From Bacilli bacterium (GTDB lineage Bacteria > Bacillota_I > Bacilli_A > RF39 > UBA660), in contig CAAGCO010000020.1 in the NCBI GenBank assembly GCA_900768345.1, positions 68,002 through 132,001 of the forward strand: 64,000 bases of DNA, read 5' to 3'. Both the position numbers and the translations under genes were made by a program. The notes beneath the pieces are model-generated. The model was given only the letters and a program-made list of their open reading frames with translations. It was not told the DNA's origin and made no database searches. This document shows, one piece after another, positions 17,477 to 58,440 of this stretch. Position 1 is the stretch's first letter, and each line of letters begins with the position of its first letter.

Positions 17477-19243
17477 ATGAAACAAAGTGATATAGAAAAA
17501 TTAATAAAGCAAGGATATTCTATAGAAGAAATAAGAGTTGCTTTAAATGGCTTAAGTACTATAGCTTTATCTCCTCAAGAAAAAGAAGCATTGGGTGAAG
17601 GAAGAGATGACAGAACTGTTTACGTAACTCCTCAAAATGGTGAAGAGAAAAAAACAAGCTCTATAATGATGGGATATAACAAACAGGGTATAGAACTAGA
17701 AAACGGAGAGTACGTAAATTTTGATGAAGTATCAGAAGCAATTAATAAAGAATTACAAACTGATGAACCAAATATAGTATATGTAAGCAAGAAAACAGGC
17801 AAAAAGATAGCTAAACCAGAAGTAATAGAAGAACTATTTAAAGATGTAATTGCTGTATCAAATGGTTTAAAAATAAGTGAAGATAATTCTATTCAAAATC
17901 AAAATACTGCAAGAATTGCAATCGAAGAATATGCTAAAAACAAAGAACATAATAAAGGTGTAATGATGTTCGGAAACGAAGGAATAGAACTACCAAACGG
18001 AGACTATGTTCTCATTTCGGAAATAGAAAGTGCTTTAGAAAATTATGTAAGAATGACCCCATCAGAAATAATTGAAATAGAAGACCCAACAAAAGGACAA
18101 GACACAAAACAAAAGCCTAAGAAAGAAGAAAAATATAGAGTAATAGATAGAATCAAAAAGAAAATGACTATCATACCAATTATTATAGCTATCGCAGGTA
18201 CACTTGCAACTGGATTTAAAATGGAACCTACATTTACTACAGAGGTAGTACAAAATGATAGAACGGAAGCTATATATATGGTAGATGAACTTCATGAAAA
18301 AAGTGAGCAAGAATTAACAGAGGAAGCAGTAGAAAGAATACAAGATATTAAAACGGGCGATAAAATTCAAATGGAAGAAGGAATTGAATACCACGAATCA
18401 AGTACTTATAAATATGGTGGAGCAAACAAAAGTGCTGAGTTTGGTGGAAAATATAGAGAAGCCGGAGAATATAATGTAGAATACATTTCAATACTTCATG
18501 ATGGCAAAAGAGTACAAGTTAAATATAATGAAGGAGAAAGTCTAGGGGAAAACTTAAAAGAAACAGCAGATAGACTAGGAGTATCCATAAGTGACTTAGA
18601 ATCATACCTTCATATAGGTGGTCCAGTAGCAGGATGGGTATCAACTGATGATTTAGTAAAGTTCCAAGTAGATAAATCACTAGAAGATAAAAATGTTATA
18701 TTAGAAACAAGCAAAAACATCAAAGTAGAGAATAAAGACTTCAACGGAAGCACAATAAGTATAAATGAAAACGGCACTAATGTAGACTTAAAAGTAGTAG
18801 ATGAAAATGGTAACTTATTAAATCCAGGTTCCATAGTGACAGGTTCAAACGGAGTAAAATATAGAATACAAGATTATAATTTAGAACAAAAACTTGATAA
18901 AGAAGAAAAACAAATTCAAACAGGTGAACACCTAACTTGGAGTATACATAATATCAGTAGTGAAGTTGCACTATTATCAGCAGCAGCATCTCTAATAGCA
19001 ACAAAATTAAGTAAACGAAATGATAAAAAGATGGTAACACTTACTGAAAGCAAAATAAATGAATTAGTAGGAAATGCAAGGCAAAAATTTGAACACGAAA
19101 GTGAATTCCAAAAAGCAGTAGATTCTTTAGTAAGTAAAAGAATAAAACCAGAAATAGCTGAAAAAGCAAATCTTAAAGATGCATTAATAGATAAACAAAT
19201 AACAGTTGAAGATATAGAAAATTTAGGAGGTCCACAATTATGA
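17477..19243 (+). CDS. hypothetical bitopic membrane protein with internal repeats
   Basis: Single TM (IIPIIIAIAGTLATGF) mid-protein. N-terminal half has repeated ~30-aa units (GYNKQGIELENGEYVNFDEVSEAI / MFGNEGIELPNGDYVLISEIESAL). Confidence 0.5.
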   Translation: MKQSDIEKLIKQGYSIEEIRVALNGLSTIALSPQEKEALGEGRDDRTVYVTPQNGEEKKTSSIMMGYNKQGIELENGEYVNFDEVSEAINKELQTDEPNIVYVSKKTGKKIAKPEVIEELFKDVIAVSNGLKISEDNSIQNQNTARIAIEEYAKNKEHNKGVMMFGNEGIELPNGDYVLISEIESALENYVRMTPSEIIEIEDPTKGQDTKQKPKKEEKYRVIDRIKKKMTIIPIIIAIAGTLATGFKMEPTFTTEVVQNDRTEAIYMVDELHEKSEQELTEEAVERIQDIKTGDKIQMEEGIEYHESSTYKYGGANKSAEFGGKYREAGEYNVEYISILHDGKRVQVKYNEGESLGENLKETADRLGVSISDLESYLHIGGPVAGWVSTDDLVKFQVDKSLEDKNVILETSKNIKVENKDFNGSTISINENGTNVDLKVVDENGNLLNPGSIVTGSNGVKYRIQDYNLEQKLDKEEKQIQTGEHLTWSIHNISSEVALLSAAASLIATKLSKRNDKKMVTLTESKINELVGNARQKFEHESEFQKAVDSLVSKRIKPEIAEKANLKDALIDKQITVEDIENLGGPQL

Positions 19244-27403: not shown

Positions 27404-28636
27404 ATGAATAAAAAAGGTTTTATATCAATGACATTAGTATACACTTTTTTAATTTTATTCTTATTTTTAATGCTTAGTGTAATGCATGCATATTCAGAAA
27501 AAAATAAGTTTTTGGATACTATAAATGATAAAATAGATTTAAGATTGACAACACCAACTAGCTATGGAATGACTATACTACAAGCACTACTAAATAAATA
27601 TGAAGCAGAAGAAAGTGGAATTATAGATTATTCTAAAAATTCTGAAGGTAGTTATTATAGTAATGGTAGTTTAGTTCAAGATATGAGTGCAACTTCAAAT
27701 GGATTTTATTTTACTCAAGTGGTAGAAGACGAAGACAATAATAAAATACATATGACAGAAGATGATAAAACAGTTTACTTTTTTAGAGGCGTAGCAGAAC
27801 AAAATTATATAGAATTTGCTAACTACTGTTGGAGAATATTTAGAAGTAATGAAAATGAGGGAGCTAGATTAGTTTTATATGGTAACTATTCAGAAGGAAG
27901 CGGTTGTACACTAAATAAGTCAATATTACCACAAGCGGCATATAACTTAACATCAAATAATAATGCATATATAGGTTATATGTATGGAAGTAATTCAAGT
28001 TCATATAATACTACTCATGAAAATGTAAATAATAGTACAATTAAATCAGTACTAGATACATGGTATGAAAATATACTACTAGATACAAAATATGAAAAAT
28101 TTATTGATGATAATGTTTTTTGCAACGATAGAGAAATAGGACAAGGTGGTTCATTTAATGGACTTACATATTATATGAATGGAACTGGAACAAGTAATAC
28201 GCTATATCAATCATTTAGAAGAAACGCAACAGGTGGAAAAGGAGGAACTTCAATAAGTATGAGTTCTGCATATCCAGTATTCGTTTGTTCAAATCAAGAA
28301 GACAAATTTACAAAAAACAATTCAAAAGGAAATACAAAATTAACTTATCCAATAGGAACATTAACAGCAGATGAACTAGTAGTATCTGGTACATCATTCA
28401 AAAGTGGAAATAGTTCATTTTTCTTAAATTATGGATTAAATATATGGACAATGACTCCAAGTACATTTACAAGTGGAGAAGCAAGAGCTGTAAGTATGCA
28501 ATTATCAGGAGAATTAGTAGAAGCACCAGTTACAAGGATATATTATGCTTTACCGGTAATATCTTTAAAAAATACAACGTTAATAAGTACTGGTGATGGA
28601 ACAAAAACTGCTCCATTTAGAGTAAAGGTGAACTAA
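27404..28636 (+). CDS. large prepilin-type N-terminal-domain protein (minor pilin / tip-pilin-like, PilK/ComGG-like)
   Basis: MNKKGF-ISMTLVYTFLILF: prepilin leader plus hydrophobic helix but no Glu at +5. 410 aa Ser/Asn/Thr/Gly-rich ectodomain. Confidence 0.5.
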   Translation: MNKKGFISMTLVYTFLILFLFLMLSVMHAYSEKNKFLDTINDKIDLRLTTPTSYGMTILQALLNKYEAEESGIIDYSKNSEGSYYSNGSLVQDMSATSNGFYFTQVVEDEDNNKIHMTEDDKTVYFFRGVAEQNYIEFANYCWRIFRSNENEGARLVLYGNYSEGSGCTLNKSILPQAAYNLTSNNNAYIGYMYGSNSSSYNTTHENVNNSTIKSVLDTWYENILLDTKYEKFIDDNVFCNDREIGQGGSFNGLTYYMNGTGTSNTLYQSFRRNATGGKGGTSISMSSAYPVFVCSNQEDKFTKNNSKGNTKLTYPIGTLTADELVVSGTSFKSGNSSFFLNYGLNIWTMTPSTFTSGEARAVSMQLSGELVEAPVTRIYYALPVISLKNTTLISTGDGTKTAPFRVKVN

Positions 28637-33826: not shown

Positions 33827-33926
33827 ATCCATGTTTGTAGAAATCTTTCTCTACAACCGCATTGAGAAGGTCAACAAAAAAGAGTAATCTTACCTTAAGA
33901 GCGAGTCTTATTGAAGGAGGAATAAA
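33827..33926 (+). ncRNA. ribosomal protein L21 leader (autoregulatory 5' UTR element candidate)
   Basis: ~100-nt structured leader between promoter and rplU (ctctacaaccgcattgagaaggtcaacaaaaaagag...gcgagtcttattgaaggagg), typical position of the Firmicute L21 leader. Confidence 0.35.
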
Positions 33927-43823: not shown

Positions 43824-45494
43824 ATGAAAAACATTTTTAAAATTTTATTAGTTATGATTTTATCATTTTCTTTAAGCATGGTTTATGCATCACAAGAAGA
43901 AATTGATAATGCAAAAAAAGCAACTGAGGAATATTGCGAAGAAGATAAAGAGAAAAAAGGGTGCATTTATGATTCGAATAATATACTTTATACAGACAGT
44001 GGAACAGTTAGAAACGAAAATGCTGCCGTCAGTTTGACTTTGAGTGGACGAAAACTTGTAAGAGGATATCAAGCAGCTGATGCAAATGGAAATATGGTTT
44101 TTGCTGGTTGCTATAAGGCAAATGTTAGTAATGTTGATTACTGGGGAGATGGAGACTACTACATATTTAAGGTAGTTAAGTTTAGTGGAAGTAGTTGTTC
44201 AACAGTTGCATCAGACATTGTACCAGCAAAAGGAACTAAATGGAAATTTGGCATATTTAATGGCGAATATGATGGAAATAATGGTATAGGAAATAATATG
44301 GCAACATACGAAGGATGGACTGCTAAAAATGGTGGAGGATGTCCACTAATGTTTGGATTAACAGCGAATACAAGATGGTATACAAGTTCAAAAAACACCT
44401 ATGTTTTTTCAGATGATGCCGCAGGATTTAATTTACAAGTATTCTCATTTTTTGGAGATGAAGAGTACAAACAATCTCCTGGATGTACAATAATGGATAA
44501 AGACGGCCACGAAGAAGCAGAAGAATGCTTTAATAATGCGGCAAGTAAGATAGAAAGCTATAGTTGTCCAAGTGATATGTCAAAACTTTCAGAAATGGCA
44601 ACTGAATTAGAAAAATATCAAACAGAATGTAAAAGTGAATTTAAAAAATTATATTCAAAAGGTTTATTAGAGTCAGAAGCAGAAGAATTTTCAACATTGC
44701 TAAAGAATAAAGTGAAAGAAAAGATTAACTCATGTCAGTATAGCAAATGTAATATATCTTCTACACAAATTCAAAAAATAATTGATGCAAAAGCAGGAAC
44801 AAAATGTGAAAAAGGTTGTTCAATCTCTATGAAAGAACAAAGTGAAGCAGAAAATGCACAATGCTATTGTTGTGGAGGTAGTAGAGGATGTTCATATACA
44901 TGGACAGATAAACCATCAAGTTCTTGTAGTAAATCTAATAAAACTAAAGACAAATGTGTCGGTACAACCGATACAGATGTATGCTTAACTTGTCTTGAAG
45001 ATGCATATAAAAAAGCAGGATTAACTAGTGCTCAAAAGAAATGTATGATTGAATCTGATATAAAAAGAGCACAAGCTGAAAGCAAAGTAACATCTGATAT
45101 AGATAAACAATTTGATGATCAAGTGCAAAAAGACCTTGAAGAAAATAGACAGACAAGAGATGAAATAGAAAAATATGAATTTAATGCTGATTTACCAGCT
45201 CAAGGATTTGGAGAAGGTGGAGAAAGCTGTGAAGCAATTGTAGGGCCAAATATAGCAAAACTTATAAAAATGGCATTAAATATTCTTAGAATAATTGGTG
45301 CAATTATAGCAATAGTAAATGGTATGATGACATTAATACCAGCAGTTGTAAACAAAGATCCAGAAGCACTTAAAAAAGCTGGAAATAAATGCGTAAAAAT
45401 TGCCGCAATATTATTAGTAATTGGTGTATTCCCATCAATATTAAGAGTTATAGGTAAAATATTTGGTTACGATTTAAGCTGTATATTTGGTTAA
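43824..45494 (+). CDS. secreted Cys-rich protein with conserved C-terminal two-helix membrane domain
   Basis: Signal peptide MKNIFKILLVMILSFSLSMVYA, >30 Cys in the ectodomain (CCGGSRGCSY..., CVGTTDTDVCLTCLE), C-terminal ~95 aa paralogous to the next ORF. Confidence 0.6.
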   Translation: MKNIFKILLVMILSFSLSMVYASQEEIDNAKKATEEYCEEDKEKKGCIYDSNNILYTDSGTVRNENAAVSLTLSGRKLVRGYQAADANGNMVFAGCYKANVSNVDYWGDGDYYIFKVVKFSGSSCSTVASDIVPAKGTKWKFGIFNGEYDGNNGIGNNMATYEGWTAKNGGGCPLMFGLTANTRWYTSSKNTYVFSDDAAGFNLQVFSFFGDEEYKQSPGCTIMDKDGHEEAEECFNNAASKIESYSCPSDMSKLSEMATELEKYQTECKSEFKKLYSKGLLESEAEEFSTLLKNKVKEKINSCQYSKCNISSTQIQKIIDAKAGTKCEKGCSISMKEQSEAENAQCYCCGGSRGCSYTWTDKPSSSCSKSNKTKDKCVGTTDTDVCLTCLEDAYKKAGLTSAQKKCMIESDIKRAQAESKVTSDIDKQFDDQVQKDLEENRQTRDEIEKYEFNADLPAQGFGEGGESCEAIVGPNIAKLIKMALNILRIIGAIIAIVNGMMTLIPAVVNKDPEALKKAGNKCVKIAAILLVIGVFPSILRVIGKIFGYDLSCIFG

Positions 45495-46145: not shown

Positions 46146-47075
46146 ATGGCAGTAATTGCAAAAAGTTATTTATTAGAAGCAGGTGTACACTTTGGACACC
46201 AAGCAAAAAGATGGAATCCAAAAATGAAGGAATACATCTTCACAACTAGAGATGACATTCATATTATTGATTTACAAAAAACTGTTGAAAAAATTGAAGA
46301 AGCTTACGCTGAACTTCTTAAAGCATGCGAAAATGGTGGTAAGGTTCTATTTGTAGGTACTAAGAAACAAGCTAAAGAAGCTAGTATCGAAGAAGCTACA
46401 AGATGTAATAGTTTTTATGTAACTGAAAGATGGTTAGGAGGAATCTTAACAAACTTCAGAACAATAAGAGAAAGAATCAAAAGATTAGTTGAAATCGAAA
46501 AAATGGAGAAAGATGGTAAATTCGAATTACTTCCTAAAAAAGAAGTTGCTCAAATTCAAAAAGAATATGACAGATTAAACAAACTTCTTGGTGGAATTAG
46601 AGAAATGGATCGTCTTCCAAAAGCTATTATCGTTGTAGATCCAAGAGTAGAAATCAATGCTATTCGTGAAGCTCGTAAATTACACATTCCAGTATTCGGA
46701 ATTGTAGATACAAACTGTGATCCAGATGATGTAGACTTCCCAATTCCAGCAAATGATGATGCTGTTAGAAGTGTTAAAGTAGTTTTAGGTGTACTTGCTA
46801 ATGCAGTGTGTGAAGCTAATGGACTACCAACAGTTGATTACGTTACTGAAGAAGAAGTTTCTAGTAAACCAGCTAAAGAAATCAAAGTTGAAACTAAAGT
46901 AGTTGAATTTGATGATTTTAGTGAAGAAAAGAAAGAAAATAAAAAAGCTGAAAAAACAGAAACACCAAATTATACAGATATGACTGTTTCAGAATTAAGA
47001 AAACTTGCTAAAGACAAAGGTGTAGCTGGATATTCAACTATGAAAAAAGATGAATTAATTTCATCATTAAATTAG
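46146..47075 (+). CDS. rpsB: 30S ribosomal protein S2 with ~60-aa C-terminal extension
   Basis: [27 protein letters not shown]... Tail rich in E/K ([20 protein letters not shown]...). Confidence 0.9.
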
Positions 47076-48449: not shown

Positions 48450-48478
48450 TTGAAATTTGGCACTTTTTGTACTATAAT
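48450..48478 (+). promoter_or_regulatory. consensus sigma-A promoter for rpsU-yqeY
   Basis: TTGAAA-17 nt-TATAAT. Confidence 0.6.
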
Positions 48479-49229: not shown

Positions 49230-50087
49230 ATGAAAAAAATAATTATAAGTTTGCTACTATTAATACCATTTATGGTAAAAGCAGATATAAATAAAATGTA
49301 TATAGATTCAGAAGTTGATATAGCTGGGAACCTAATAGTAAAAGAAATAATAGAAGTAGATTCTACTGATGAGTTTATACTATCAATTCCTTACAAATCA
49401 CAGAATTCTAAAGTATATAAAGAAAACAATATAGTAAAAGATGATAGCATTATATATGATGCTGAAAATATTCAAATAAACAAAATTGGAACAATTGACA
49501 CTGAGTACGATATAAATGATTTATACAAAGATGACTTTAGTAAGAATGTAACTGAATATAAAGACTATAAAATAAATGATACAAAAACTAACATAGAAAT
49601 AACTTTCGAAGAAACAAAAAAGAATAAAATATATTATTTAGAATATTTAGTGCTTTGCACATCAGTTAAACATAATGATTCAGCAGAATTATATTATTCT
49701 TATATAAGAAACTCTAATCAAAATATAAAAGAAGCAGTCATTATCACAAGATTACCAGAAAATTCAAACTTATTTGAAGTATATGCTCATGGCAATAATA
49801 AAATAAATGTTTCAAAAGATGATAAAGATTCTATAGTTTTAACTAAAATAAATAATTTAAAAAGAGGTAGTAGTTATAATATTAGAATACTATATGATAA
49901 AGATATATTTAAAATAGCTATAAATGACTCTAAAAAAAGTAATATAAATGCAGTAAATTTAATAAAAGATATAGAGAATAGCAAACTAAATAAAAGTAAT
50001 TTTTTAAATGTATATAAATATATAAGTATTCCATTAATTATAGTACTAATTGTTTCATTTATAATAATTAAAAGGAAAACAAAATGA
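49230..50087 (+). CDS. hypothetical secreted protein with C-terminal membrane anchor
   Basis: Signal peptide MKKIIISLLLLIPFMVKA, C-terminal TM IPLIIVLIVSFIII. 4-nt overlap with the next gene. Confidence 0.4.
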   Translation: MKKIIISLLLLIPFMVKADINKMYIDSEVDIAGNLIVKEIIEVDSTDEFILSIPYKSQNSKVYKENNIVKDDSIIYDAENIQINKIGTIDTEYDINDLYKDDFSKNVTEYKDYKINDTKTNIEITFEETKKNKIYYLEYLVLCTSVKHNDSAELYYSYIRNSNQNIKEAVIITRLPENSNLFEVYAHGNNKINVSKDDKDSIVLTKINNLKRGSSYNIRILYDKDIFKIAINDSKKSNINAVNLIKDIENSKLNKSNFLNVYKYISIPLIIVLIVSFIIIKRKTK

Positions 50088-50929
50088 AAAAAGCATTAAG
50101 AAATATATTAATAATTTTAGGTGTATTGATAGTAAGTACAGTTTTAATTGTATTAGATAGTTACATTAACATTGATGTAAGTCATTATGAAATTAAAAGC
50201 GACAAATTAAATCAAAAGTATAATAATTATAAAATAATGCTTTTAACAGATTTACATAATAGAGATATAACAGAAAAACTAGTAAAAATAGTTAATGAAG
50301 AAAATCCAAATATTATAGTTATGAGTGGTGACATGATTAATGAAAAAGTAGATGGCTTTGATAATTTCTTTAATCTTTGTGAAGAACTAAAAGACAAAAC
50401 TGTATACTATGTTTTTGGCAATCACGAAGAAAATATGTCAGATGAAAAACAAAATGAATTTATAGAAAAAATAAAAGAAAAAACAAATGTAATTTTACTT
50501 AATAATGATAAAGTAGAACTAGATGATAGTTTTACTATCTATGGATTTAGTCACCAAGTTAAATATTATTTAGCAAGTACTAAAGAAAAAATAGACTTAA
50601 ATTATATTGAAGAAAGAATAGGAAAAATAGATATTAATAAGTTTAATTTACTTATATCACATGATCCATTATTATATAATTTATATAGCGAATATGGCTT
50701 TGATATGGTATTAAGTGGACATTTGCATGGCGGTATTATAAATATTCCATTTGTAGGAGGACTTTTATCACCTGATTTCACATTCTTTCCAAAGTATTAT
50801 AAAGGAGTAAATAAGATAGGAAATACTAATTTAGTTATTTCAAGAGGACTTGGTTATGGTTATATGATACCTATAAGAGTGTTTAATAGAGGAGAAGTAG
50901 TAATTATAAATTTAATGAAAAACGAATAG
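50084..50929 (+). CDS. membrane-anchored calcineurin-like metallophosphoesterase
   Basis: N-terminal TM, motifs LLTDLHN, SGDMIN, GNHE, SHDP, GHLHGG. Confidence 0.75.
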   Translation: MKKALRNILIILGVLIVSTVLIVLDSYINIDVSHYEIKSDKLNQKYNNYKIMLLTDLHNRDITEKLVKIVNEENPNIIVMSGDMINEKVDGFDNFFNLCEELKDKTVYYVFGNHEENMSDEKQNEFIEKIKEKTNVILLNNDKVELDDSFTIYGFSHQVKYYLASTKEKIDLNYIEERIGKIDINKFNLLISHDPLLYNLYSEYGFDMVLSGHLHGGIINIPFVGGLLSPDFTFFPKYYKGVNKIGNTNLVISRGLGYGYMIPIRVFNRGEVVIINLMKNE

Positions 50930-50962: not shown

Positions 50963-51574
50963 ATGAAATATATATTATATAAAACAATAAAAACACTAGG
51001 AAGACCAATATATAAGATTTTATTTTTTCCTAGATATTATGGAGTAGATAACATTCCAAAAGAAGGGGCTGTTATTTTAGCAGGGAATCATACTAATAAT
51101 TTAGATGCAGCAATGATGGTTGGAAGCCCTAATAGAGTTGTACATATGATAGCTAAAAAAGAACTATTTAATACAAAGCTAAAAAACTGGTTTTTTAGAA
51201 GCATGGCTTGTATTCCAGTAGATAGAAGTATACATGATGAAAAGTGTAAAAATGAAGCAATAGAGTATCTTGAAAGAGGAGAAGCAATTGGATTATTTCC
51301 AGAAGGAACAGTAAATAAAACAAAAGGCACTGATCATGAAGAATACTTGTTACCATTTAAATTCGGAGCAGTTTCATTTGCTAAAAAAACAGGAGCATAC
51401 TTAGTACCATTCGCAATTAATGGAAAATACAAATTATTCAGAAAAAGTATAAAAATAACTTATGGAAAACCATATAAAGTTACTGGAGACTTAGAAAAAG
51501 AAAATGAAATTCTAAGAAATAAAGTATATAAATTAATGAAAGAAGGAGACCGAGAGTATGAAAAAAGAAAATAA
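50963..51574 (+). CDS. PlsC-family lysophospholipid acyltransferase (paralogue 1)
   Basis: H(X4)D block AGNHTNNLDAAM, FPEGTVN block, LPFKFGAVSFAKK. Confidence 0.75.
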   Translation: MKYILYKTIKTLGRPIYKILFFPRYYGVDNIPKEGAVILAGNHTNNLDAAMMVGSPNRVVHMIAKKELFNTKLKNWFFRSMACIPVDRSIHDEKCKNEAIEYLERGEAIGLFPEGTVNKTKGTDHEEYLLPFKFGAVSFAKKTGAYLVPFAINGKYKLFRKSIKITYGKPYKVTGDLEKENEILRNKVYKLMKEGDREYEKRK

Positions 51575-53303
51575 TAAAAAAGAAACAACTAAGAATTATG
51601 AACAACCTTGGTTCAAGTATTATAAAGGTGTAAGAGCCCATATAGATTATCCCGATGTTTCAATGTACGAACTAGTAAGAAGTTGTGCCGATAAATATCC
51701 AGGCAATATCGCATACACTTATTTTGGAAACAAAGTAACATATAAAACATATATAAAAAATATAGATGAAGCAGCAAAAGCATTCGTAAGACTAGGAGTA
51801 GTAAAAGGAGATGTGGTAAGTATTATAATGCCAAACACTCCAGAAACTATTACCTGTTTTTATGCGCTAAATAAATTAGGCGCCATATGTAACATGATAC
51901 ATCCGCTTTCAAGTGAAGAAGAAATTAAATACGATATAAATCTTACCTCTTCAACATATGTAATAGTTGCAGATATCGCATTTGGAAAATTAAAAAATAT
52001 TAAAGATGAATTAAATCTTAAGAAAATAGTATATTTACCAATATGTGAATCAATGGATCCTCTGATGAAAATTGGATACAAACTTACTACTGGAAGAAAA
52101 GCAGTAAGACCAAGCGGAAGTAATGTAATTCCATATTATAGATTCATTGGAAGAAGTAAATATGAAAAAGAAGAAGTAAAAGATACTGGAAAAGGAGACG
52201 ATACCGCAGTTATTCTTCATAGTGGAGGAACAACAGGTAAACCTAAAGGAATAGTACTTACTAATAAAAACTTTAATGCATTAGTTCTAAGTGAACTTGA
52301 AATTAATAAATGCTTAGGTGATGGAATAAGTATTTTAGCAATAATGCCTATATTTCATGGATTCGGTCTTGGATGCACTTTCCATGCATGCATGGTATCA
52401 GGAGGAACAGCTATCATACTTCCAAGCGTGAATCCAAAGAAATTTGATGAAACTCTACTTAAATATAAGCCAAATATTTTAGCTTGTGTACCAAGTGTAT
52501 TAGAAGGACTTACACTAAGCAAAAAACTAGTTGATGAAGACCTTTCATTCATAAAATGTATTATTTGTGGAGGAGACTCTTTAACTGGAACACTTAATGA
52601 TAAAATAGATGAATTCTTGTATGATCATGGTAGTGAAACACATGTAAGAACAGCATTTGGTATGACAGAATGTGCAGCAGGCGTAACAATGATGCCACTT
52701 GAAACAACAAGAAAAGAAAGTATTGGTATTCCTTGTCCAGACTGTTTAATAAAAATATGTGAACCAGGAACAGACAAAGAATGTAAAAATGGAGAAGTTG
52801 GAGAAATATGCATAAGTGGTCCAACTCTTATGAAAGAATACATTAATGAACCTGAAGAAACTAAAAATACACTAAAAAAACATAAAGATGGACTTACTTG
52901 GTTACATAGTGGTGACCTTGGTACAATGGATGAAGATGGATTTGTATATTTTAAATCTAGATTAAAAAGAATGATCGTATCTAGTGGATATAATATTTAT
53001 CCAGGACAAATAGAACAAATTATATGTGAGCATCCATACGTACAAGCATGCTCAGTAGTAGGAGTTCCCCATCCATATAAAAAAGAAGTAGCAAAAGCTT
53101 ATATAGTATTAAAAGAAGGAATAGTACTAAATAGTGAAGTTAAAAAATCAATAAAAGAACACTGTGAAAAAAATATAGCTAAGTATGCACTACCATATTC
53201 ATATGGATATAGAAAAGAACTTCCTAAAACAAAATTAGGAAAAGTAGCATATAGAGATTTAATTAATTCAAAAAATGAGGAAGATGAAGATGAAAGAGAT
53301 TAA
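51558..53303 (+). CDS. AMP-forming acyl-CoA synthetase / long-chain fatty-acid--CoA ligase
   Basis: AMP-binding motif LHSGGTTGKPKGIV, WLHSGDLG, C-terminal ...SGYNIYPGQIE. 17-nt overlap with the upstream acyltransferase. Confidence 0.8.
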   Translation: MKKENNKKETTKNYEQPWFKYYKGVRAHIDYPDVSMYELVRSCADKYPGNIAYTYFGNKVTYKTYIKNIDEAAKAFVRLGVVKGDVVSIIMPNTPETITCFYALNKLGAICNMIHPLSSEEEIKYDINLTSSTYVIVADIAFGKLKNIKDELNLKKIVYLPICESMDPLMKIGYKLTTGRKAVRPSGSNVIPYYRFIGRSKYEKEEVKDTGKGDDTAVILHSGGTTGKPKGIVLTNKNFNALVLSELEINKCLGDGISILAIMPIFHGFGLGCTFHACMVSGGTAIILPSVNPKKFDETLLKYKPNILACVPSVLEGLTLSKKLVDEDLSFIKCIICGGDSLTGTLNDKIDEFLYDHGSETHVRTAFGMTECAAGVTMMPLETTRKESIGIPCPDCLIKICEPGTDKECKNGEVGEICISGPTLMKEYINEPEETKNTLKKHKDGLTWLHSGDLGTMDEDGFVYFKSRLKRMIVSSGYNIYPGQIEQIICEHPYVQACSVVGVPHPYKKEVAKAYIVLKEGIVLNSEVKKSIKEHCEKNIAKYALPYSYGYRKELPKTKLGKVAYRDLINSKNEEDEDERD

Positions 53304-54132
53304 AGCAACAGATGAATGCAGACACGAACTTGGATATAAATTAATGAGACCAATAGTTTCATGGAATTTTAAAAGAAAATATCATCCAGTCGTAATAGGA
53401 GGAGAAAATATTCCAAAAACAGGTCCATTAGTCTTCTGCGGAAACCATAGACATAAAGATGATCAATACAACGTTATGTTAGAAACTAAAAGAGTAATTC
53501 ATATGCTTTCTAAAGATGAATACTTTAAAGGAAAATCAGCATGGTTCTATAGAGCAGCAGGATGCATTCCAGTAGATAGAAGCATTCATGATGAAAACGC
53601 AAAGAGCGAAGCAAGGGCAATTCTTCATAGTAAAGGTTGCATTGGACTTTTCCCAGAAGGAACAAGAAACGAAGTAACATGTAAAGATGAAGAATTAGAA
53701 AAACTAGAAAAAATATTAAATTTATCAAAAGAAGAAATAATAGAAAAGATTAAATATAAATCTATAAGAACAACACAAGTAAATTTACTTATAGACTTAA
53801 AGAAACAAAACAAAATAACAAAAGATGAACTAAAAGAATTTGTATTAGATGCAGATAATGCATTATTGAAACTACTTAAGAAAAAAATAATCACTAAAGA
53901 AGAATATAATGAATCATTACTTCTACCATTTAAATTCGGAGCAGTATCACTTGCTAAGAAAGAAAATGCTCTTATAATTCCATTCGCAACAACGGGATTA
54001 TATAATGGAGAAAAAGAACAATTAATAACTAGAATTGGTAAGCCACTCGATATTAGCAGTATGGAACTAGAAGATGCAAATAAACTATTAAGAGAAACAA
54101 TGATTAAATTAATGCAAAAAAGTGAAGAATAG
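53275..54132 (+). CDS. PlsC-family acyltransferase with ~70-aa helical insertion (paralogue 2)
   Basis: CGNHRHKDDQYN (H(X4)D), FPEGTRNE, LPFKFGAVSLAKK. Insertion between the last two blocks. 29-nt overlap with the ligase gene. Confidence 0.7.
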   Translation: MRKMKMKEIKATDECRHELGYKLMRPIVSWNFKRKYHPVVIGGENIPKTGPLVFCGNHRHKDDQYNVMLETKRVIHMLSKDEYFKGKSAWFYRAAGCIPVDRSIHDENAKSEARAILHSKGCIGLFPEGTRNEVTCKDEELEKLEKILNLSKEEIIEKIKYKSIRTTQVNLLIDLKKQNKITKDELKEFVLDADNALLKLLKKKIITKEEYNESLLLPFKFGAVSLAKKENALIIPFATTGLYNGEKEQLITRIGKPLDISSMELEDANKLLRETMIKLMQKSEE

Positions 54133-54163: not shown

Positions 54164-55270
54164 ATGAAATTTATTTTAACAGCTGGTGGAACAGGAGGAC
54201 ATATATATCCTGCATTATCAGTTTTAGAAGAAATAAAGAAAGATAAGAAAAATGAATATTTGTACATAGGTACAAAAGATAGAATGGAAAACGAATTAAT
54301 TCCAAGTATGGGTATTCCATATGAAGGTTTAGAAATATACGGACTTTCAAAAACAAATATGGTTAAAAATATTAAAAATATAAAATGCATTAGAGACTCA
54401 TACAAAAAATGTTTAAAAATAATGGATGAATTCAAGCCTGATGCAGTAATCGCATTTGGTGGATATGTAACTCTTCCAGTATGTTTAGCTGCTAAGAAAA
54501 AAGGAGTAAAAGTATTCTTACATGAACAAAATATGCTTCCTGGAAAAACAAACATATTCCTATCTAAAAAGGTAGATGCAGTATTTGTATCATTCAAAGA
54601 TGGAACAAGAAAACTAAAGTGTAAGAATATAATTTATACAGGAAATCCAGTTAGTCAAAGAGCAATCGAAACCAAAAAATATGATAAAACAGACTTGGGA
54701 TTTACTAAAGATAAAAAACTAATTATTATAGTTATGGGATCACTTGGTAGTACATCAGTAAATGAAAAACTTTTAGATTTCTTAAGAACATACGAAAGAG
54801 AAGATACTGAAATTTTGTTCATAACAGGTAAAAAGAGTTATCCTGAATTAAGTAATAACTTAATAGTACCAAAAAGTACAAAGATAGTTCCATTCTTCGA
54901 TAATCTTCCTAGCCTTATGAAATCAGCAGATTTAATCATATCAAGAGCAGGAGCATCAACAATCGCAGAAATAATGGCAACTAAAACCCCATCAATATTA
55001 ATACCAAGTCCTTATGTAGCAAATAATCATCAATATTATAATGCATTAGACTTAGTTGATAAAAAAATAAGTATACTATTAGAAGAAAAAGACTTAAATA
55101 AAGATTCACTTACAGAAGCAATTAATGAAATATTCGAAGAAAATACATTTAAAGAAATAAAGAAAAACTTAAGTGAAATAAAAGATATGTCATCAAGTAC
55201 ATTAATAATGACAGAAATATATAAAGAATTAAAGGAAGAAAATGAAGAAAAGGGTAAGAAAAAAATTTAA
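54164..55270 (+). CDS. murG: undecaprenyldiphospho-muramoylpentapeptide beta-N-acetylglucosaminyltransferase
   Basis: MKFILTAGGTGGHIYPALSV N-terminal G-loop, 368 aa. Confidence 0.85.
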   Translation: MKFILTAGGTGGHIYPALSVLEEIKKDKKNEYLYIGTKDRMENELIPSMGIPYEGLEIYGLSKTNMVKNIKNIKCIRDSYKKCLKIMDEFKPDAVIAFGGYVTLPVCLAAKKKGVKVFLHEQNMLPGKTNIFLSKKVDAVFVSFKDGTRKLKCKNIIYTGNPVSQRAIETKKYDKTDLGFTKDKKLIIIVMGSLGSTSVNEKLLDFLRTYEREDTEILFITGKKSYPELSNNLIVPKSTKIVPFFDNLPSLMKSADLIISRAGASTIAEIMATKTPSILIPSPYVANNHQYYNALDLVDKKISILLEEKDLNKDSLTEAINEIFEENTFKEIKKNLSEIKDMSSSTLIMTEIYKELKEENEEKGKKKI

Positions 55271-55916
55271 TTTTGGTAAGTTTATATTATTCATACTAAT
55301 AATATGTCTTATTTACTTTGGAATAAAATACTTATGCAGTATAAAAACAAAAAATATAATTATAGTAAATAATAACTATTATAGTGATGAAGAAATAATT
55401 GAAACAGCTGGAATTGAAGATTACCCTAAATTCATAACTTTAAGTAGAAAAAAAATAAAAAATAAATTATCTTCTCTAGATTTAATAGAAGATGTAGAAA
55501 TTAAAAAAGAATTTGGCTTTGTATTAAGAATAACTATAAAAGAAAAGAAAATACTTTATTATATAAGAAGTAATAATGAATACAAAGTATCAGATAATAA
55601 AAATTATAGTTTAGATAATGTTAATGGAGTACCAACACTAATCAATTATGTCCCTGAAGAAGTAGAAAAGAAATTTGTAACCAAACTTAAAGAAGTAGAT
55701 TCGAACATAATAAATATGATAAGTGAAATAGAATACAATAAAACATCATATGATAGTGAAAGATTCCTATTATATATGAATGATGGTAACGAAGTATATA
55801 TAACAGTATCAAGAACAAATTTATTAAATAAATATGTAGAAATAGTTACTAAACTAGATAATAAAAAAGGAATATTATATTTAGATAGTGGTAACTACTT
55901 TGAAATAAAAAAATAG
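55242..55916 (+). CDS. cell division protein FtsQ/DivIB-like
   Basis: Short cytoplasmic tail, single TM (FILFILIICLIYFGI), POTRA-like region. Immediately downstream of and overlapping murG. Confidence 0.55.
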   Translation: MKKRVRKKFNFGKFILFILIICLIYFGIKYLCSIKTKNIIIVNNNYYSDEEIIETAGIEDYPKFITLSRKKIKNKLSSLDLIEDVEIKKEFGFVLRITIKEKKILYYIRSNNEYKVSDNKNYSLDNVNGVPTLINYVPEEVEKKFVTKLKEVDSNIINMISEIEYNKTSYDSERFLLYMNDGNEVYITVSRTNLLNKYVEIVTKLDNKKGILYLDSGNYFEIKK

Positions 55917-56522: not shown

Positions 56523-56635
56523 TAAATGTGTATAATTTATGTAATATAACGTTGACATATATTTTTATTTGATGCTATAATTAAAACATAAGGATAGAGA
56601 AACTATCTCGATAAAGAAAGGATTGTGATTAGTAA

Positions 56636-57101
56636 AATGAATAAGAAAGGATTTACATTAGTAGAGTTATTAGCAGTTATCGCTATCTTAGCTATCTTAG
56701 TAATTATCGCACTACCAAATGTATTATCTATGTACAATGAAGCTAGAAAAAATACATTTGTTACTGAAGTAAGAGATTACTATAAAGCAGGAGAACAAAA
56801 TTACTTATTAAACTCAGGAAAAGCTGTAGTTTATACTAGTTTAACAGGAGTTACTGGTTCTAAAACTATCGAAATGACTGGTAATAAAAATATGCAATAT
56901 TACATTACGTTCGATGCTAATGGAAAATGTACTAAATTATTAGCTACTAATGGTACATATAAGATTGAAGCAACTGCAACTGAAATCAATATTGAACAAT
57001 TAGGCGACACTTATAAAGCTATTGAAACATCAGACGAATTCGCTTTAGCTGTTGATACAAATGGTGCTAAAATTACTGGTACTGCAAAATCAACAAAATA
57101 A
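56636..57101 (+). CDS. type IV pilin / pseudopilin (ComGC/PilA-like), solitary
   Basis: MNKKG-FTLVELLAVIAILAILVIIALPN canonical prepilin signal with Glu+5. ATG 56636 chosen over the upstream GTG. Confidence 0.7.
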
Positions 57102-57161: not shown

Positions 57162-58046
57162 ATGAATTTAATAATAGGAAGCCATGTAAGTTTTAATAAT
57201 AAAAAACAACTTTTAGGTAGTGTAGAAGAAGCTATAAGCTATAATGCAAATACATTTATGATCTACACTGGTGGAGCTCAAAGTACTATGAGAAGTGCTA
57301 TAAATGATGAATTAACATATGAAGGCTATAAGTTAATGTTAGAAAATAATATAAATGCAAAAAACGTAATAGTACATGCTCCATATATAGTTAATTTAGC
57401 TAATAGAAGTGATAAAAATAAATATGATTTTTATATAGATTTTTTTATAAAAGAACTTGATAGATGTAAAACCTTAGGATTAGATAAAATAGTATTACAT
57501 CCTGGAAGTGCTACTACTTGTACTAAAGAAGAAGCAATAGAAAATATCGTTCATGGTATTAATCTAGTATATAAAAGCACAACAAATACAATGATTCTTT
57601 TAGAATTTATGTCAGGAAAAGGTACTGAAGTAGGTACATCAATTGATGAATTAAAAGCAATAATTGATAAAATAGAAGATAAGAATAGAATAGGTGTATG
57701 CCTAGACTCTTGCCATATGAATGATGCAGGAATAGATATATCTAAGATAGATGAATTTTTAGATGAATTTGATTCGAAAATTGGAATAGATAAAATAAAA
57801 TGCTTTCATATAAATGACAGTATGAATCCAATTGGAAGCCATAAAGATAGACATGCAAATATTGGATATGGAACAATAGGATTTAATAATTTATTAAATG
57901 TAGTTTATAACAAAAGACTAGAAGGAATACCATTCATTTTAGAAACACCATATATTAATAGAAATCAAAGTGATGCATACGCACCATATAAAATGGAAAT
58001 TGAAAGTATAAGAAAAAAAGAATTTATAGATTTTATAAATAAATGA
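57162..58046 (+). CDS. nfo: endonuclease IV (AP endonuclease, xylose-isomerase-like TIM barrel)
   Basis: IGSHVS...HAPYIVNLA...LHPGS... Zn-ligand His/Asp/Glu pattern. Start at ATG 57162 after AAAGGTGA. Confidence 0.85.
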   Translation: MNLIIGSHVSFNNKKQLLGSVEEAISYNANTFMIYTGGAQSTMRSAINDELTYEGYKLMLENNINAKNVIVHAPYIVNLANRSDKNKYDFYIDFFIKELDRCKTLGLDKIVLHPGSATTCTKEEAIENIVHGINLVYKSTTNTMILLEFMSGKGTEVGTSIDELKAIIDKIEDKNRIGVCLDSCHMNDAGIDISKIDEFLDEFDSKIGIDKIKCFHINDSMNPIGSHKDRHANIGYGTIGFNNLLNVVYNKRLEGIPFILETPYINRNQSDAYAPYKMEIESIRKKEFIDFINK

Positions 58047-58139
58047 TATATAGTATATTAAATTGATATCTATGTTCAATTACTGCATATTGTTTTTTAC
58101 AAGTGTTTGGAATATGTTAATAAAATAAAAATTTATTGA

Positions 58140-58394
58140 TTATTCAATAAACTTTTTATATTCATTATATTTTTCAATTATCTTTTTATAAAGTTCAGGG
58201 TTAAAATTTAATTTATAGTTAGAAATATAGCTCATAAAATTAGTATTTAAAATTTCTTCATAATCATTTTTTATAGCGTTATAGATCATGTCTATTTCTT
58301 CATCAGAAGCAGTAACACATTCTTTGCTTAAATAATTTATAATGTCTTGCTTTGTAAGTCTATTTATATACCCCTTTAATAGTTCTTTCTTCAA
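58140..58394 (-). CDS. hypothetical small protein
   Basis: 84-aa ORF downstream of the PLP enzyme gene. Confidence 0.3.
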   Translation of the reverse strand: MKKELLKGYINRLTKQDIINYLSKECVTASDEEIDMIYNAIKNDYEEILNTNFMSYISNYKLNFNPELYKKIIEKYNEYKKFIE

Positions 58395-58395
58395 A

Positions 58396-58440
58396 TAAAA
58401 ACCTCCTACTAATATAGTTTATTAGTAAGAGGCTTTTTTA
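58396..58440. terminator. bidirectional hairpin
   Basis: cctcctactaat-atagttt-attagtaagagg with T-runs on both sides. Confidence 0.5.

Follow-up and report, generated by a model that had tools for sequence, protein, structure and literature searches.

Three overlapping genes in the small genome of an uncultured human-gut Bacilli bacterium encode an acyltransferase (AT1), a fatty-acid ligase and a second acyltransferase (AT2). They form a real and conserved module that is assembled from known parts, a variant of ligase-plus-acyltransferase lipid salvage. We estimate an even chance (probability about 0.5) that it is a dedicated unit for the salvage of fatty acids and the acylation of membrane glycerolipids.

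Organization of the module

The window (i.e. the whole stretch of 64,000 nt that was analysed) contains three overlapping open reading frames on the + strand, at 50963-51574 (203 aa), 51558-53303 (581 aa) and 53275-54132 (285 aa). The genes are assigned as follows.

50963..51574, + strand: AT1, a 203-aa acyltransferase of the LPLAT/PlsC superfamily, upstream (non-Arg) class
51558..53303, + strand: ligase, a 581-aa FadD-like AMP-forming fatty-acid ligase with PF00501 and PF13193 domains
53290..54132, + strand: AT2, a 280-aa acyltransferase of the downstream (Arg) class; the longest reading frame, from 53275, has 285 aa

The AT1 and ligase genes overlap by 17 nt, as originally predicted, and the sequence AAGGAG forms a ribosome binding site 8 nt 5′ of the ligase ATG. 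The predicted overlap of 29 nt between the ligase and AT2 holds only for the longest AT2 reading frame. The ATG at 53290 is preceded by GAGGAA at a distance of 9 nt, and gene callers applied to the public assemblies chose this start too (giving 280 aa). For both reasons AT2 most likely starts at 53290, whereby the overlap would be reduced to 14 nt. The ribosome binding sites of both the ligase and AT2 lie inside the preceding, overlapping gene. Together with the Pfam domains and the retention of the arrangement in relatives, this confirms the proposal of a tightly coupled acyltransferase/ligase/acyltransferase unit. Contigs from numerous human-gut assemblies carry the three genes unchanged (182 indexed blocks contain the ligase, on contigs of up to 1.29 Mb), so the module is neither an assembly artefact nor a chance set of reading frames.

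Three features of the surroundings are listed here.

48450..48478, + strand: promoter-like TTGAAA-17-TATAAT ahead of rpsU, from a consensus scan only
50084..50929, + strand: membrane-anchored, calcineurin-like metallophosphoesterase, YaeI-like (PF00149 E=4.7e-14; NF008460 YaeI 88 bits, below cutoff)
54164..55916, + strand: murG and ftsQ, downstream context outside the module

The metallophosphoesterase gene ends 33 nt 5′ of AT1. It has the same position upstream of AT1 only in loci L007 and L008, and is possibly an accessory gene outside the core of the module. The position directly upstream of murG-ftsQ was correctly predicted, with murG (54164-55270) scoring 286 bits against a TIGR01133 cutoff of 250, and ftsQ having a POTRA_1 domain; this context is common to L007-L009. 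A scan for terminator-like sites on the + strand between 47989 and 58000 found none, and murG-ftsQ are apparently co-transcribed with the module, as judged from sequence. The promoter-like site is a candidate for the start of a long transcript rpsU-yqeY-hyp-MPE-AT1-LIG-AT2-murG-ftsQ-ylbD-ylbE (where hyp, MPE and LIG are a hypothetical gene, the metallophosphoesterase and the ligase), noting that sites found by the consensus scan are not enriched over shuffled sequence. Housekeeping envelope genes surround the module elsewhere too, with murI upstream and an Abhydrolase_3 esterase downstream in L023, L024, L034, L040 and L043.

The ligase is related to FadD

The ligase matches PF00501 (E=1.6e-69, 235 bits) and PF13193 (E=8.5e-18, 65.5 bits), and the core motifs of the ANL family (P-loop, hinge and A10 lysine) are intact as HSGGTTGKPKG, GMTE, SGDLG and LPKTKLGK. 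In BLASTP it aligns over its full length with E. coli FadD (204 bits, 26% identity), compared with 76 bits for E. coli Aas. The best NCBIfam matches are long-chain fatty acyl-CoA synthetase (FACS) models (NF004114, 352.8 bits against a cutoff of 766; NF004837, 338.8 against 476), and the FadD model NF006523 gives 227 bits against 884; every equivalog cutoff is missed. The best match in the PDB is FadD-1 (3g7s, 170 bits), with AasS (8hsy) at 106 bits. The alignment with full-length E. coli FadD reveals no large insertion of the FAAL type, and no FAAL is found among the best 60 PDB matches, which are headed by FACS, 4CL and luciferase. By these comparisons the ligase resembles FadD and neither Aas nor the FAALs, and the prediction of a fatty-acid ligase between two acyltransferases is upheld. 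No beta-oxidation genes adjoin the ligase in any of the ~90 loci examined, so that membership of a beta-oxidation operon, which had been raised as an objection, is not found at any of them.

The AasC enzyme of Chlamydia belongs to the same superfamily and carries an acyl-CoA-ligase-like annotation, yet makes only acyl-ACP (PMC6167442). Given this precedent the choice between CoA and ACP as acceptor cannot be read from the sequence of the ligase, and the earlier description of the acyltransferases as acyl-CoA-type is an assumption.

The two acyltransferases belong to different classes

Both acyltransferases match PF01553 above the gathering cutoff of 23 bits (AT1 E=3.8e-27, 95.1 bits; AT2 E=1.3e-15, 57.8 bits), the match in AT2 being spread across residues 40-238 by the insertion described below. 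Close homologues are named 'lysophospholipid acyltransferase family protein' by NCBI. The HX4D dyad is present in each (NHTNNLD, H43 and D48 in AT1; NHRHKDD, H53 and D58 in AT2), as are IPVDR (IPVDR88 in AT1, IPVDR97 in AT2), FPEGT and LPFKFGAVS(F/L)AKK, and the two proteins are 45% identical across 119 aa (E=3e-30). These common motifs were the basis for describing them as two paralogous PlsC enzymes. They differ in the residue that follows PEGT, which is valine in AT1 (FPEGT-V117) and arginine in AT2 (FPEGT-R126). The same division is found in all 13 two-acyltransferase modules, where the upstream enzyme has V, I or T at this position and the downstream enzyme has arginine, and the Arg-class enzymes are monophyletic in a neighbour-joining tree. 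On this sequence evidence AT1 and AT2 are two old classes in a fixed order and not recent paralogues, so the shared motifs stand while the original description has to be amended. In eukaryotic enzymes the arginine after PEGT is essential in AGPAT1 and GPAT1, and its place is taken by cysteine in LPCAT1/2 (PMC4280512).

AT1 has no transmembrane segment and aligns with residues 43-238 of Thermotoga maritima PlsC (5KYM; phmmer E=6.7e-13). The N-terminal two-helix anchor of that enzyme is absent from both proteins, each having only ~40-50 residues before HX4D; the model of AT2 has a single N-terminal helix (residues 14-31). The AlphaFold2 model of AT2 (pLDDT 82) has 5KYM as its top PDB match (Foldseek E=2e-5). 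Thus the fold is that of the T. maritima enzyme, and HX4D, IPVDR and PEGT are common to all three, with PEGT-Arg kept in AT2. By contrast AT1 begins at the equivalent of residue 43, lacking the first anchor helix, and has valine for arginine, while AT2 carries a helical insertion of 73 aa between motifs III and IV. The lysophosphatidate (LPA) acyltransferase activity that we infer for AT2 is suggested by a single motif residue and one fusion, since both proteins score below the NCBI PlsC-domain cutoff (TIGR00530, AGP_acyltrn: AT1 88.9 and AT2 50.0 bits, cutoff 102.95).

The insertion in AT2 is as follows.

53701..53919, + strand: 73-aa insert of AT2, between motif III (FPEGTR) and LPFKFG

Measured against orthologues that lack it, the insert comprises residues 138-210 of the 280-aa protein. 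It had been described as a coiled insertion of ~70 aa. The length was close to correct, but AlphaFold models a domain of five confident helices (133-143, 147-154, 161-172, 178-197 and 203-210) and no long coiled coil. It contains ITK(D/E)E(L/Y) repeats, and no Pfam family is matched, apart from a sub-threshold SHOCT-like match. The insert is kept in orthologues down to ~60% identity, is missing from the syntenic L007-L009, and has homologues in the fusion proteins P0288 and P0371. According to the model it is a helical domain, which is specific to this lineage and lacking in the nearest relatives with the same synteny.

Recurrence and natural fusions

Ligase homologues were examined in loci of 80 GTDB species. 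An adjacent PF01553 acyltransferase is present in 27 and both classes in 13; many homologues with 42-50% identity stand without an acyltransferase beside them. The order non-Arg acyltransferase, ligase, Arg acyltransferase is found in the 13 species-level loci, all from gut metagenome-assembled genomes (MAGs), with duplicated arrays in L024 and L028.

The components are also fused to one another. Among the closest relatives of AT1 there are fusions of an isoleucine-class to an arginine-class acyltransferase (P0243, P0244 and P0335) and of a ligase to an acyltransferase (P0282 and P0285). In P0288 a PgsA-like CDP-alcohol phosphatidyltransferase (CDP-OH_P_transf) is fused to an insert-bearing Arg-class enzyme. 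Fusions can fill the AT2 slot of modules that are identical in other respects, as AT-LIG-[LIG'-AT] in L093 and AT-LIG-[PgsA-like-AT] in L094 and L095. Taken as sequence evidence, the fusions support the view that the module functions as one unit connected with phospholipid synthesis. That a PgsA-like enzyme is fused to an AT2-class enzyme at the same position of the module strengthens the connection with glycerophospholipid synthesis; to that extent the phospholipid role suggested in the original prediction has gained support from a conserved unit. Acyltransferases of this family are also found joined to other partners, among them GtrA-like and HAD-like domains.

Proposed role and comparison with known systems

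Our proposal builds on the gene structure, the domains and motifs, the two classes in fixed order, the synteny and the fusions; the substrates, the thiol carrier, the formation of a complex and the physiological role are put forward conditionally from sequence. The ligase would adenylate free, exogenous long-chain fatty acids and transfer them to a thiol carrier, by homology most likely CoA, or else ACP. The two small, peripheral LPLAT-family enzymes, probably bound to the ligase, would then carry the acyl group to two different acceptors. AT2 (PEGT-Arg) could act as a lysophosphatidate-type acyltransferase feeding the CDP-diacylglycerol/phosphatidylglycerol branch. AT1 (PEGT-Val/Ile/Thr) would acylate a second acceptor that is bound differently, such as a lysolipid bearing a head group, monoacylglycerol, or glycerol-3-phosphate bound in another way. 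The insert of AT2 would be a lineage-specific addition, possibly for binding the membrane or a partner. RF39-type gut Bacilli are reported to lack type II fatty-acid synthesis (FASII) (PMC6784871), which makes a role in fatty-acid salvage attractive; low GC and contig size suggest that the bacterium may belong to such a lineage.

The closest parallels are Aas of E. coli (with LplT) and the AasC plus LpaT pair of Chlamydia trachomatis, in which an ANL ligase is likewise coupled to a short PF01553 acyltransferase lacking the PlsC anchor. These direct exogenous fatty acids into phospholipid, as we propose for the module. The module differs in having two acyltransferases of different classes instead of one. 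Compared with Aas, its ligase is FadD-like, there is no linked LplT or ACP gene, and the natural fusions of its relatives have the order ligase-acyltransferase, the reverse of that in Aas. The ligase differs from E. coli FadD in lying between acyltransferases, outside a fad/beta-oxidation regulon. There is a further likeness to the eukaryotic Kennedy pathway and Lands cycle, where acyl-CoA is made from free fatty acid and serves PF01553 enzymes, which are divided by the PEGT residue. Those with PEGT-Arg (AGPAT1-5 and GPAT1) and those without (LPCAT1/2) use different acceptors (PMC4280512). The module proteins are by contrast bacterial, small, free of transmembrane segments and encoded in one operon, and so the likeness is one of logic and not of orthology.

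Alternative roles

The best-placed alternative, which we regard as a minority possibility, is a split system for recycling lysophospholipids in the manner of Aas or AasC/LpaT. In that case the ligase would function as an acyl-ACP synthetase, and lysophospholipids arising from lipoprotein acylation, phospholipases, or attack by host or bile would be re-acylated by AT1 and AT2, in the service of membrane repair or remodelling rather than bulk synthesis. Consistent with this, the alignment of AT1 with E. coli Aas pairs residue 4 with residue 1, both proteins having a short N-terminus without the two-helix PlsC anchor; AT1 is also without the PEGT-Arg typical of enzymes acting on LPA or glycerol-3-phosphate. 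Ligase-acyltransferase fusions occur in relatives, and the AasC precedent indicates that members of the superfamily can be ACP-specific. The acyltransferase domain of LplT-Aas fusions (NF006386) is the second-best NCBIfam match of both AT1 and AT2 (77 and 40 bits), but Aas-type models score far under their cutoffs (77 against 1221 for NF006386; 20.5 against 886 for NF005959). The ligase is moreover far nearer to FadD than to the synthetase domain of Aas or to AasS. No LplT-like MFS transporter or ACP gene adjoins the module in the window or the fetched loci (L001-L095 for MFS), and the fusion of the Arg-class enzyme to a PgsA-like enzyme argues for flow into phospholipid made de novo.

It is unlikely, on our assessment, that the module is a complete CoA-dependent replacement for FakAB/PlsX/PlsY/PlsC, with AT1 acting on glycerol-3-phosphate and AT2 on lysophosphatidate so that a host lacking FASII makes phosphatidate. 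The known relatives of Mollicutes retain the FakAB/PlsX/PlsY/PlsC route, which counts against it, and AT1 lacks the arginine that is essential in GPAT1-type enzymes. The two classes do match the two steps, in fixed order and sometimes fused, and the module is kept beside essential envelope genes in a genome from which the longest scaffold recovered measures about 1.3 Mb. No fakA, fakB (DegV), plsX, plsY, acpP or FASII genes were found by Pfam tables and motif scans in the window and its two 10-kb flanks, although these ~84 kb are only ~6% of the genome. The sole FabG-like short-chain dehydrogenase/reductase (SDR) in this region scores below the cutoff and lies with a YnbB-like gene beside efp; on both grounds it is more likely a YmfI-type enzyme of EF-P modification. 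The published loss of FASII in RF39 (PMC6784871) is also in keeping with replacement. A self-contained replacement pathway is thus plausible from the sequence, presupposing a genome without FakAB, PlsX and PlsY. In its fullest form, which we consider doubtful, a eukaryote-like, CoA-dependent ligase-acyltransferase complex would be the main or only route from scavenged fatty acid to phosphatidate in FASII-less RF39-like gut Bacilli of reduced genome, replacing FakAB/PlsX/PlsY/PlsC. The non-Arg enzyme would then act on glycerol-3-phosphate or on lysolipids from diet or host and the Arg enzyme on lysophosphatidate, with the AT2 insert as a new domain for binding membrane or partner.

In ten Clostridia loci an acyltransferase-ligase pair (ligase 45-53% identical to that of the window) comes first in an operon that further encodes a B12-radical SAM enzyme, a CDP-alcohol phosphatidyltransferase and a protein of unknown function. 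The setting there is a specialised head-group cluster and not a housekeeping one, which counts against the main proposal. Five of the ten (L011, L012, L017, L021 and L044) also encode PEP mutase, phosphonopyruvate decarboxylase and a cytidylyltransferase/Fe-ADH fusion. These operons and the GtrA-like and HAD-like fusion partners could point to a specialised lipid, i.e. acylation of a glycolipid or lipoteichoic-acid anchor, acyl-phosphatidylglycerol, or a phosphono- or CDP-alcohol-derived lipid, but this is the least probable role, because the Clostridia acyltransferase is of a third distinct class (SPEAKR motif) present in single copy, the two-acyltransferase modules of Bacilli MAGs lie amid housekeeping genes without the head-group genes, and upkeep of such a function in so reduced a genome would be less parsimonious.

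Significance

Large and prevalent lineages of uncultured human-gut Bacilli are reported to lack fatty-acid synthesis entirely, and for their membrane assembly the fatty-acid kinase route is the only suggestion in print (PMC6784871). The module provides a concrete candidate for the step from fatty acid to membrane in FASII-less gut Bacilli, on account of its cell-envelope gene neighbourhood and because relatives have its parts fused among themselves and with a PgsA-like enzyme. Should it be an accessory repair system, it would amount to an ordinary variant of Aas. As the main route, it would establish a CoA-type (or split Aas-type) pathway of acylation within the Firmicute lineage and distinguish two classes of bacterial LPLAT that differ in their acceptors, and it would point to lipids (free fatty acids and lysolipids) for the culture media of such organisms.

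Organization and expression of the genes

The module comprises three overlapping genes on the forward strand of the window, the GC content of which is about 26%.

Genes of the module, with Pfam matches
50963-51574, +, upstream acyltransferase AT1 (PF01553, E = 3.8e-27)
51558-53303, +, ligase (PF00501, E = 1.6e-69; AMP-binding enzyme PF13193, E = 8.5e-18)
53275-54132, +, downstream acyltransferase AT2, longest reading frame (PF01553, E = 1.3e-15)

The coordinates confirm the original prediction of a 17-nt overlap between the end of AT1 and the start of the ligase, the ATG of which has AAGGAG 8 nt to its 5′ side. The overlap of 29 nt proposed between the ligase and AT2 holds for the longest reading frame, but the ATG at 53290 is preceded by GAGGAA at the right distance and is the start (giving 280 aa) chosen by the gene callers in six public assemblies, so an overlap of 14 nt is likely. 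As had been stated, the module lies directly upstream of murG (above the TIGR01133 cutoff) and ftsQ, with a gap of 31 nt. No terminator-like site was found on the forward strand from the end of tsf (47989) to 58000, so the module is probably part of a long transcript. This may start at a promoter-like site before rpsU; the promoter scan is weak evidence, promoter-like matches being no more frequent than in shuffled sequences.

An index lists the identical ligase protein for 182 collection blocks. Most of these are human-gut assemblies, and the contigs are as long as 1.29 Mb. Close homologues are named 'acyl--CoA ligase [Mollicutes bacterium]' and 'lysophospholipid acyltransferase family protein [Bacilli bacterium]' at NCBI. 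At 90% identity a public collection clusters AT1 (203 aa) together with the ligase (581 aa), the two being encoded at 50963-53303, and fused ORF calls across the 17-nt overlap in some assemblies may be the reason.

The ligase is FadD-like

The highest-scoring NCBIfam models for the ligase are long-chain-fatty-acid--CoA ligases, all below cutoff (352.8 against 766 and 338.8 against 476). The protein aligns with E. coli FadD over its full length without large insertions (204 bits, 26% identity), and with E. coli Aas over the C-terminal part only (76 bits). The best match in the PDB is Archaeoglobus FadD-1 (170 bits), compared with 106 bits for Vibrio AasS, and there is no fatty acyl-AMP ligase among the 60 PDB matches listed. 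From these rankings and alignments the ligase is classed as FadD-like, and assignment as a FAAL or NRPS-type enzyme was rejected. A role in beta-oxidation was also rejected, because no fadE- or fadB-type gene lies near the ligase in any locus examined.

Two classes of acyltransferase

AT1 and AT2 have HX4D, IPVDR, FPEGT and LPFKFGAVS(F/L)AKK sequences in common, all but the second of which had been noted originally, and share 45% identity in their first 119 residues. Both score below the TIGR00530 cutoff. The alignment of AT1 with Thermotoga PlsC (5KYM) begins at residue 43 of the latter, so that of the two helices in the membrane anchor AT1 lacks the first. The AlphaFold model of AT2 has a pLDDT of 82, and its best match in the PDB is also 5KYM.

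The two proteins had been described as paralogous PlsC enzymes, which oversimplifies their relationship. Wherever a module has two ATs, NHT...D and a PEGT sequence followed by V, I or T mark the upstream enzyme, and NH(K/R/I/M)H..D and PEGT followed by arginine the downstream enzyme. Neighbour joining places the Arg-class enzymes, AT2 among them, in one clade, with the non-Arg enzymes outside. This order of classes also holds in duplicated arrays, which read I-ligase-R-ligase-R (L024), ligase-I-ligase-R (L028) and ligase-I-R (L045). The first two are tandem duplications of the module (L024 7071-12263 and L028 9270-13979) in which the alternation of non-Arg and Arg enzymes is kept. AT1 and AT2 are not paralogues that could be interchanged, and this is the key new finding.

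The residue after PEGT is arginine in AGPAT1-5, GPAT1 and DHAPAT and cysteine in LPCAT1/2; motif III is involved in acceptor binding, and the mutations R181A/K and R318K abolish activity (PMC4280512). Since AT2 has arginine at this position it carries the signature of an enzyme using lysophosphatidate (LPA) or glycerol 3-phosphate (G3P). By the same comparison AT1 must be predicted to bind its acceptor differently.

The insertion in AT2

Compared with insert-free orthologues, AT2 contains 73 extra residues between FPEGTRN and LPFKFG (residues 138-210 of the 280-aa form; window 53701-53919). The size agrees with the coiled insertion of about 70 aa that had been proposed, but the AlphaFold model has five confident helices and no long coiled coil. 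AT2 orthologues of as little as about 60% identity still carry the insert. The nearest syntenic relatives (L007-L009) do not have it, so it is lineage-specific and the core function does not require it. No Pfam family was found in the insert, the only match being a sub-threshold, SHOCT-like one over an ITKEEY repeat, and Foldseek comparison of the AT2 model with the PDB matched the PlsC core only. P0288 and P0371, both fusion proteins, contain homologous inserts.

Conservation of gene order

A ligase profile run against a single genome from each GTDB species gave 80 loci, in which ORFs were called and compared by BLAST with the window proteins. A PF01553 acyltransferase adjoins the ligase in 27 of the 80, and in 13 there are acyltransferases on both sides of the ligase or two in a row. 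Closest to the window are L007-L009, with ligases 64-65% and MurG proteins 81-86% identical; all three keep the order AT-ligase-AT-murG, and in L008 and L009 ftsQ-ylbD follows murG. In five more distant Bacilli MAGs (L023, L024, L034, L040 and L043) the module lies between murI and an Abhydrolase_3 esterase. The metallophosphoesterase gene on the 5′ side of AT1 was rejected as a core member, since L007 and L008 are the only loci to retain it there. Searches of the literature turned up no relevant account of an AT-FACS-AT operon from Firmicutes, Mollicutes or RF39.

Fusion proteins

An exhaustive HMMER search of 1.84 billion representatives with AT1 as query revealed fusions among its closest relatives. 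These comprise tandem AT-AT proteins (P0243, P0244 and P0335, the first having PEGT-I then PEGT-R), ligase-AT fusions (P0282 and P0285), a CDP-alcohol phosphatidyltransferase joined to an insert-bearing Arg-class acyltransferase (P0288), and HAD-like-AT and GtrA-AT proteins.

The genomic contexts of the fusions are decisive. P0282 is the third gene of an AT-ligase-[ligase′-AT] array (L093), and P0288 that of AT-ligase-[CDP-OH_P_transf-AT] (L094/L095). By its transferase domain P0288 comes closest to PgsA (77.8 bits against a cutoff of 109). The fusions link the three module proteins to each other and to the CDP-diacylglycerol/phosphatidylglycerol (PG) branch.

In the ligase domain of P0282 (L093 3049-5040) the P-loop HSGGTTGKPKG is replaced by YDYTNSKELKP, the GD of motif A7 is missing, and the C-terminal AMP-binding subdomain is not found by Pfam. 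These features suggest that P0282 carries a non-catalytic ligase scaffold on the Arg-class acyltransferase, and loss of the P-loop suggests that ligase and acyltransferase make contact through such a scaffold.

We note a separate gene for a PgsA-like CDP-alcohol phosphatidyltransferase (241 aa; L089 15381-16106, reverse strand) on a conspecific contig, about 4 kb past the 3′ end of the window. The protein scores 54.8 bits with TIGR00560, below cutoff, and is 28% identical to the P0288 transferase domain.

Other features of the window

A FabG-like SDR was considered as a sign of fatty-acid synthesis (FASII) and rejected.

Genes around efp
58438-59673, -, YnbB-like PF06838 protein
59667-60407, -, FabG/YmfI-like SDR (NF047420, 158.9 bits, below the cutoff of 238)
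60723-61280, +, rpmG-efp, divergent from the YnbB-like and SDR genes

Given its score and its neighbours, the YnbB-like gene and efp, the SDR is more probably an enzyme of the YmfI type that modifies EF-P. A similar grouping with efp is seen for the genes of EF-P 5-aminopentanol modification in Bacillus.

The sole Rfam match in the window is a ribosomal protein L21 leader (RF00559, 42.4 bits; 33845-33918, +) on the 5′ side of rplU-prp-rpmA. Ribosomal protein S2 (309 aa; 46146-47075, +) has an extra Rho_N match (PF07498), unusual for S2. A perfect TTGACA-18-TATAAT with extended TG (56552-56581, +) lies 44 nt 5′ of a type IV pilin-like (N_methyl) gene (56625-57101). A DUF285 gene (477 aa; L089 4635-6068) lies between an AP endonuclease gene and an 84-aa gene; being present in one conspecific contig and missing from the window (compare 58046-58438) and L001-L006, it is an insertion that varies between strains.

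Four long conserved ORFs have no Pfam match: 17477-19243 (588 aa), 43824-45494 (556 aa), 27404-28636 (410 aa) and 49230-50087 (285 aa). NCBIfam gave no match to the 556- and 285-aa ORFs. By eye the 285-aa protein has a signal-peptide-like hydrophobic stretch at its N-terminus and one resembling a TM anchor at its C-terminus; its ORF overlaps the metallophosphoesterase gene by 4 nt.

Proposed role of the module

The most likely role of the module, with a probability of about one half, is as a dedicated unit that salvages fatty acids and uses them to acylate membrane glycerolipids. In this proposal two peripheral acyltransferases associated with the FadD-like ligase would receive from it an acyl thioester, probably acyl-CoA. 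The Arg-class enzyme would acylate lysophosphatidate, leading into the PG branch, and the non-Arg-class enzyme would work on a second acceptor.

A split Aas-like, ACP-dependent system for lysophospholipid recycling is the foremost alternative, and we consider it possible at perhaps half that weight. In both AT1 and AT2 the family ranked second is that of the acyltransferase domain in LplT-Aas fusions, the alignment of AT1 with E. coli Aas begins by pairing residue 4 of the former with residue 1 of the latter, and Chlamydia AasC, of the same superfamily as the ligase, produces acyl-ACP only (PMC6167442). Scanning every fetched locus for motifs revealed no ACP, nor PlsX, PlsY, DegV, CdsA or CoaD/E; the FakA-motif matches were PEP mutase false positives only.

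Full replacement of FakAB/PlsX/PlsY/PlsC by the module is unlikely. No fakA, fakB, plsX, plsY, acpP or fab gene was found in the window plus 10 kb on each side (~84 kb, about 6% of the genome). The bacterium carrying the window is presumably RF39-like. Fatty-acid synthesis is reported to be wholly lost in the gut order RF39, where a fatty-acid kinase route is only guessed (Nayfach et al., PMC6784871); six KO identifiers intended for plsX, plsY, plsC, fadD, fakA and ACP were not found in the supplementary KO tables of that 2019 study.

Least probable is a specialised-lipid module, a reading that recalls an operon of Clostridia MAGs. In ten loci of Lachnospiraceae, Oscillospiraceae and similar organisms just one acyltransferase, belonging to a third class with the motif SPEAKR, and the ligase head an operon with a B12-binding radical SAM enzyme, a CDP-alcohol phosphatidyltransferase and an uncharacterised ~215-aa protein. 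The operon is full in L011, L012, L017, L021 and L044 (e.g. L017 2764-11533), which have additional genes for PEP mutase, a phosphonopyruvate-decarboxylase-like TPP enzyme and a cytidylyltransferase/Fe-ADH fusion, and partial in L015, L016, L019, L022 and L060. It looks like an undescribed pathway to a phosphonate or CDP-alcohol head-group lipid, and shows that specialised-lipid synthesis can draw on the AT-ligase pair.

Every part of the module comes from a well-known family, and its logic has precedents in Aas, AasC/LpaT and eukaryotic ACSL with AGPAT/LPCAT. The module offers a clear experimental path into how the question posed by uncultured gut Bacilli may be answered.
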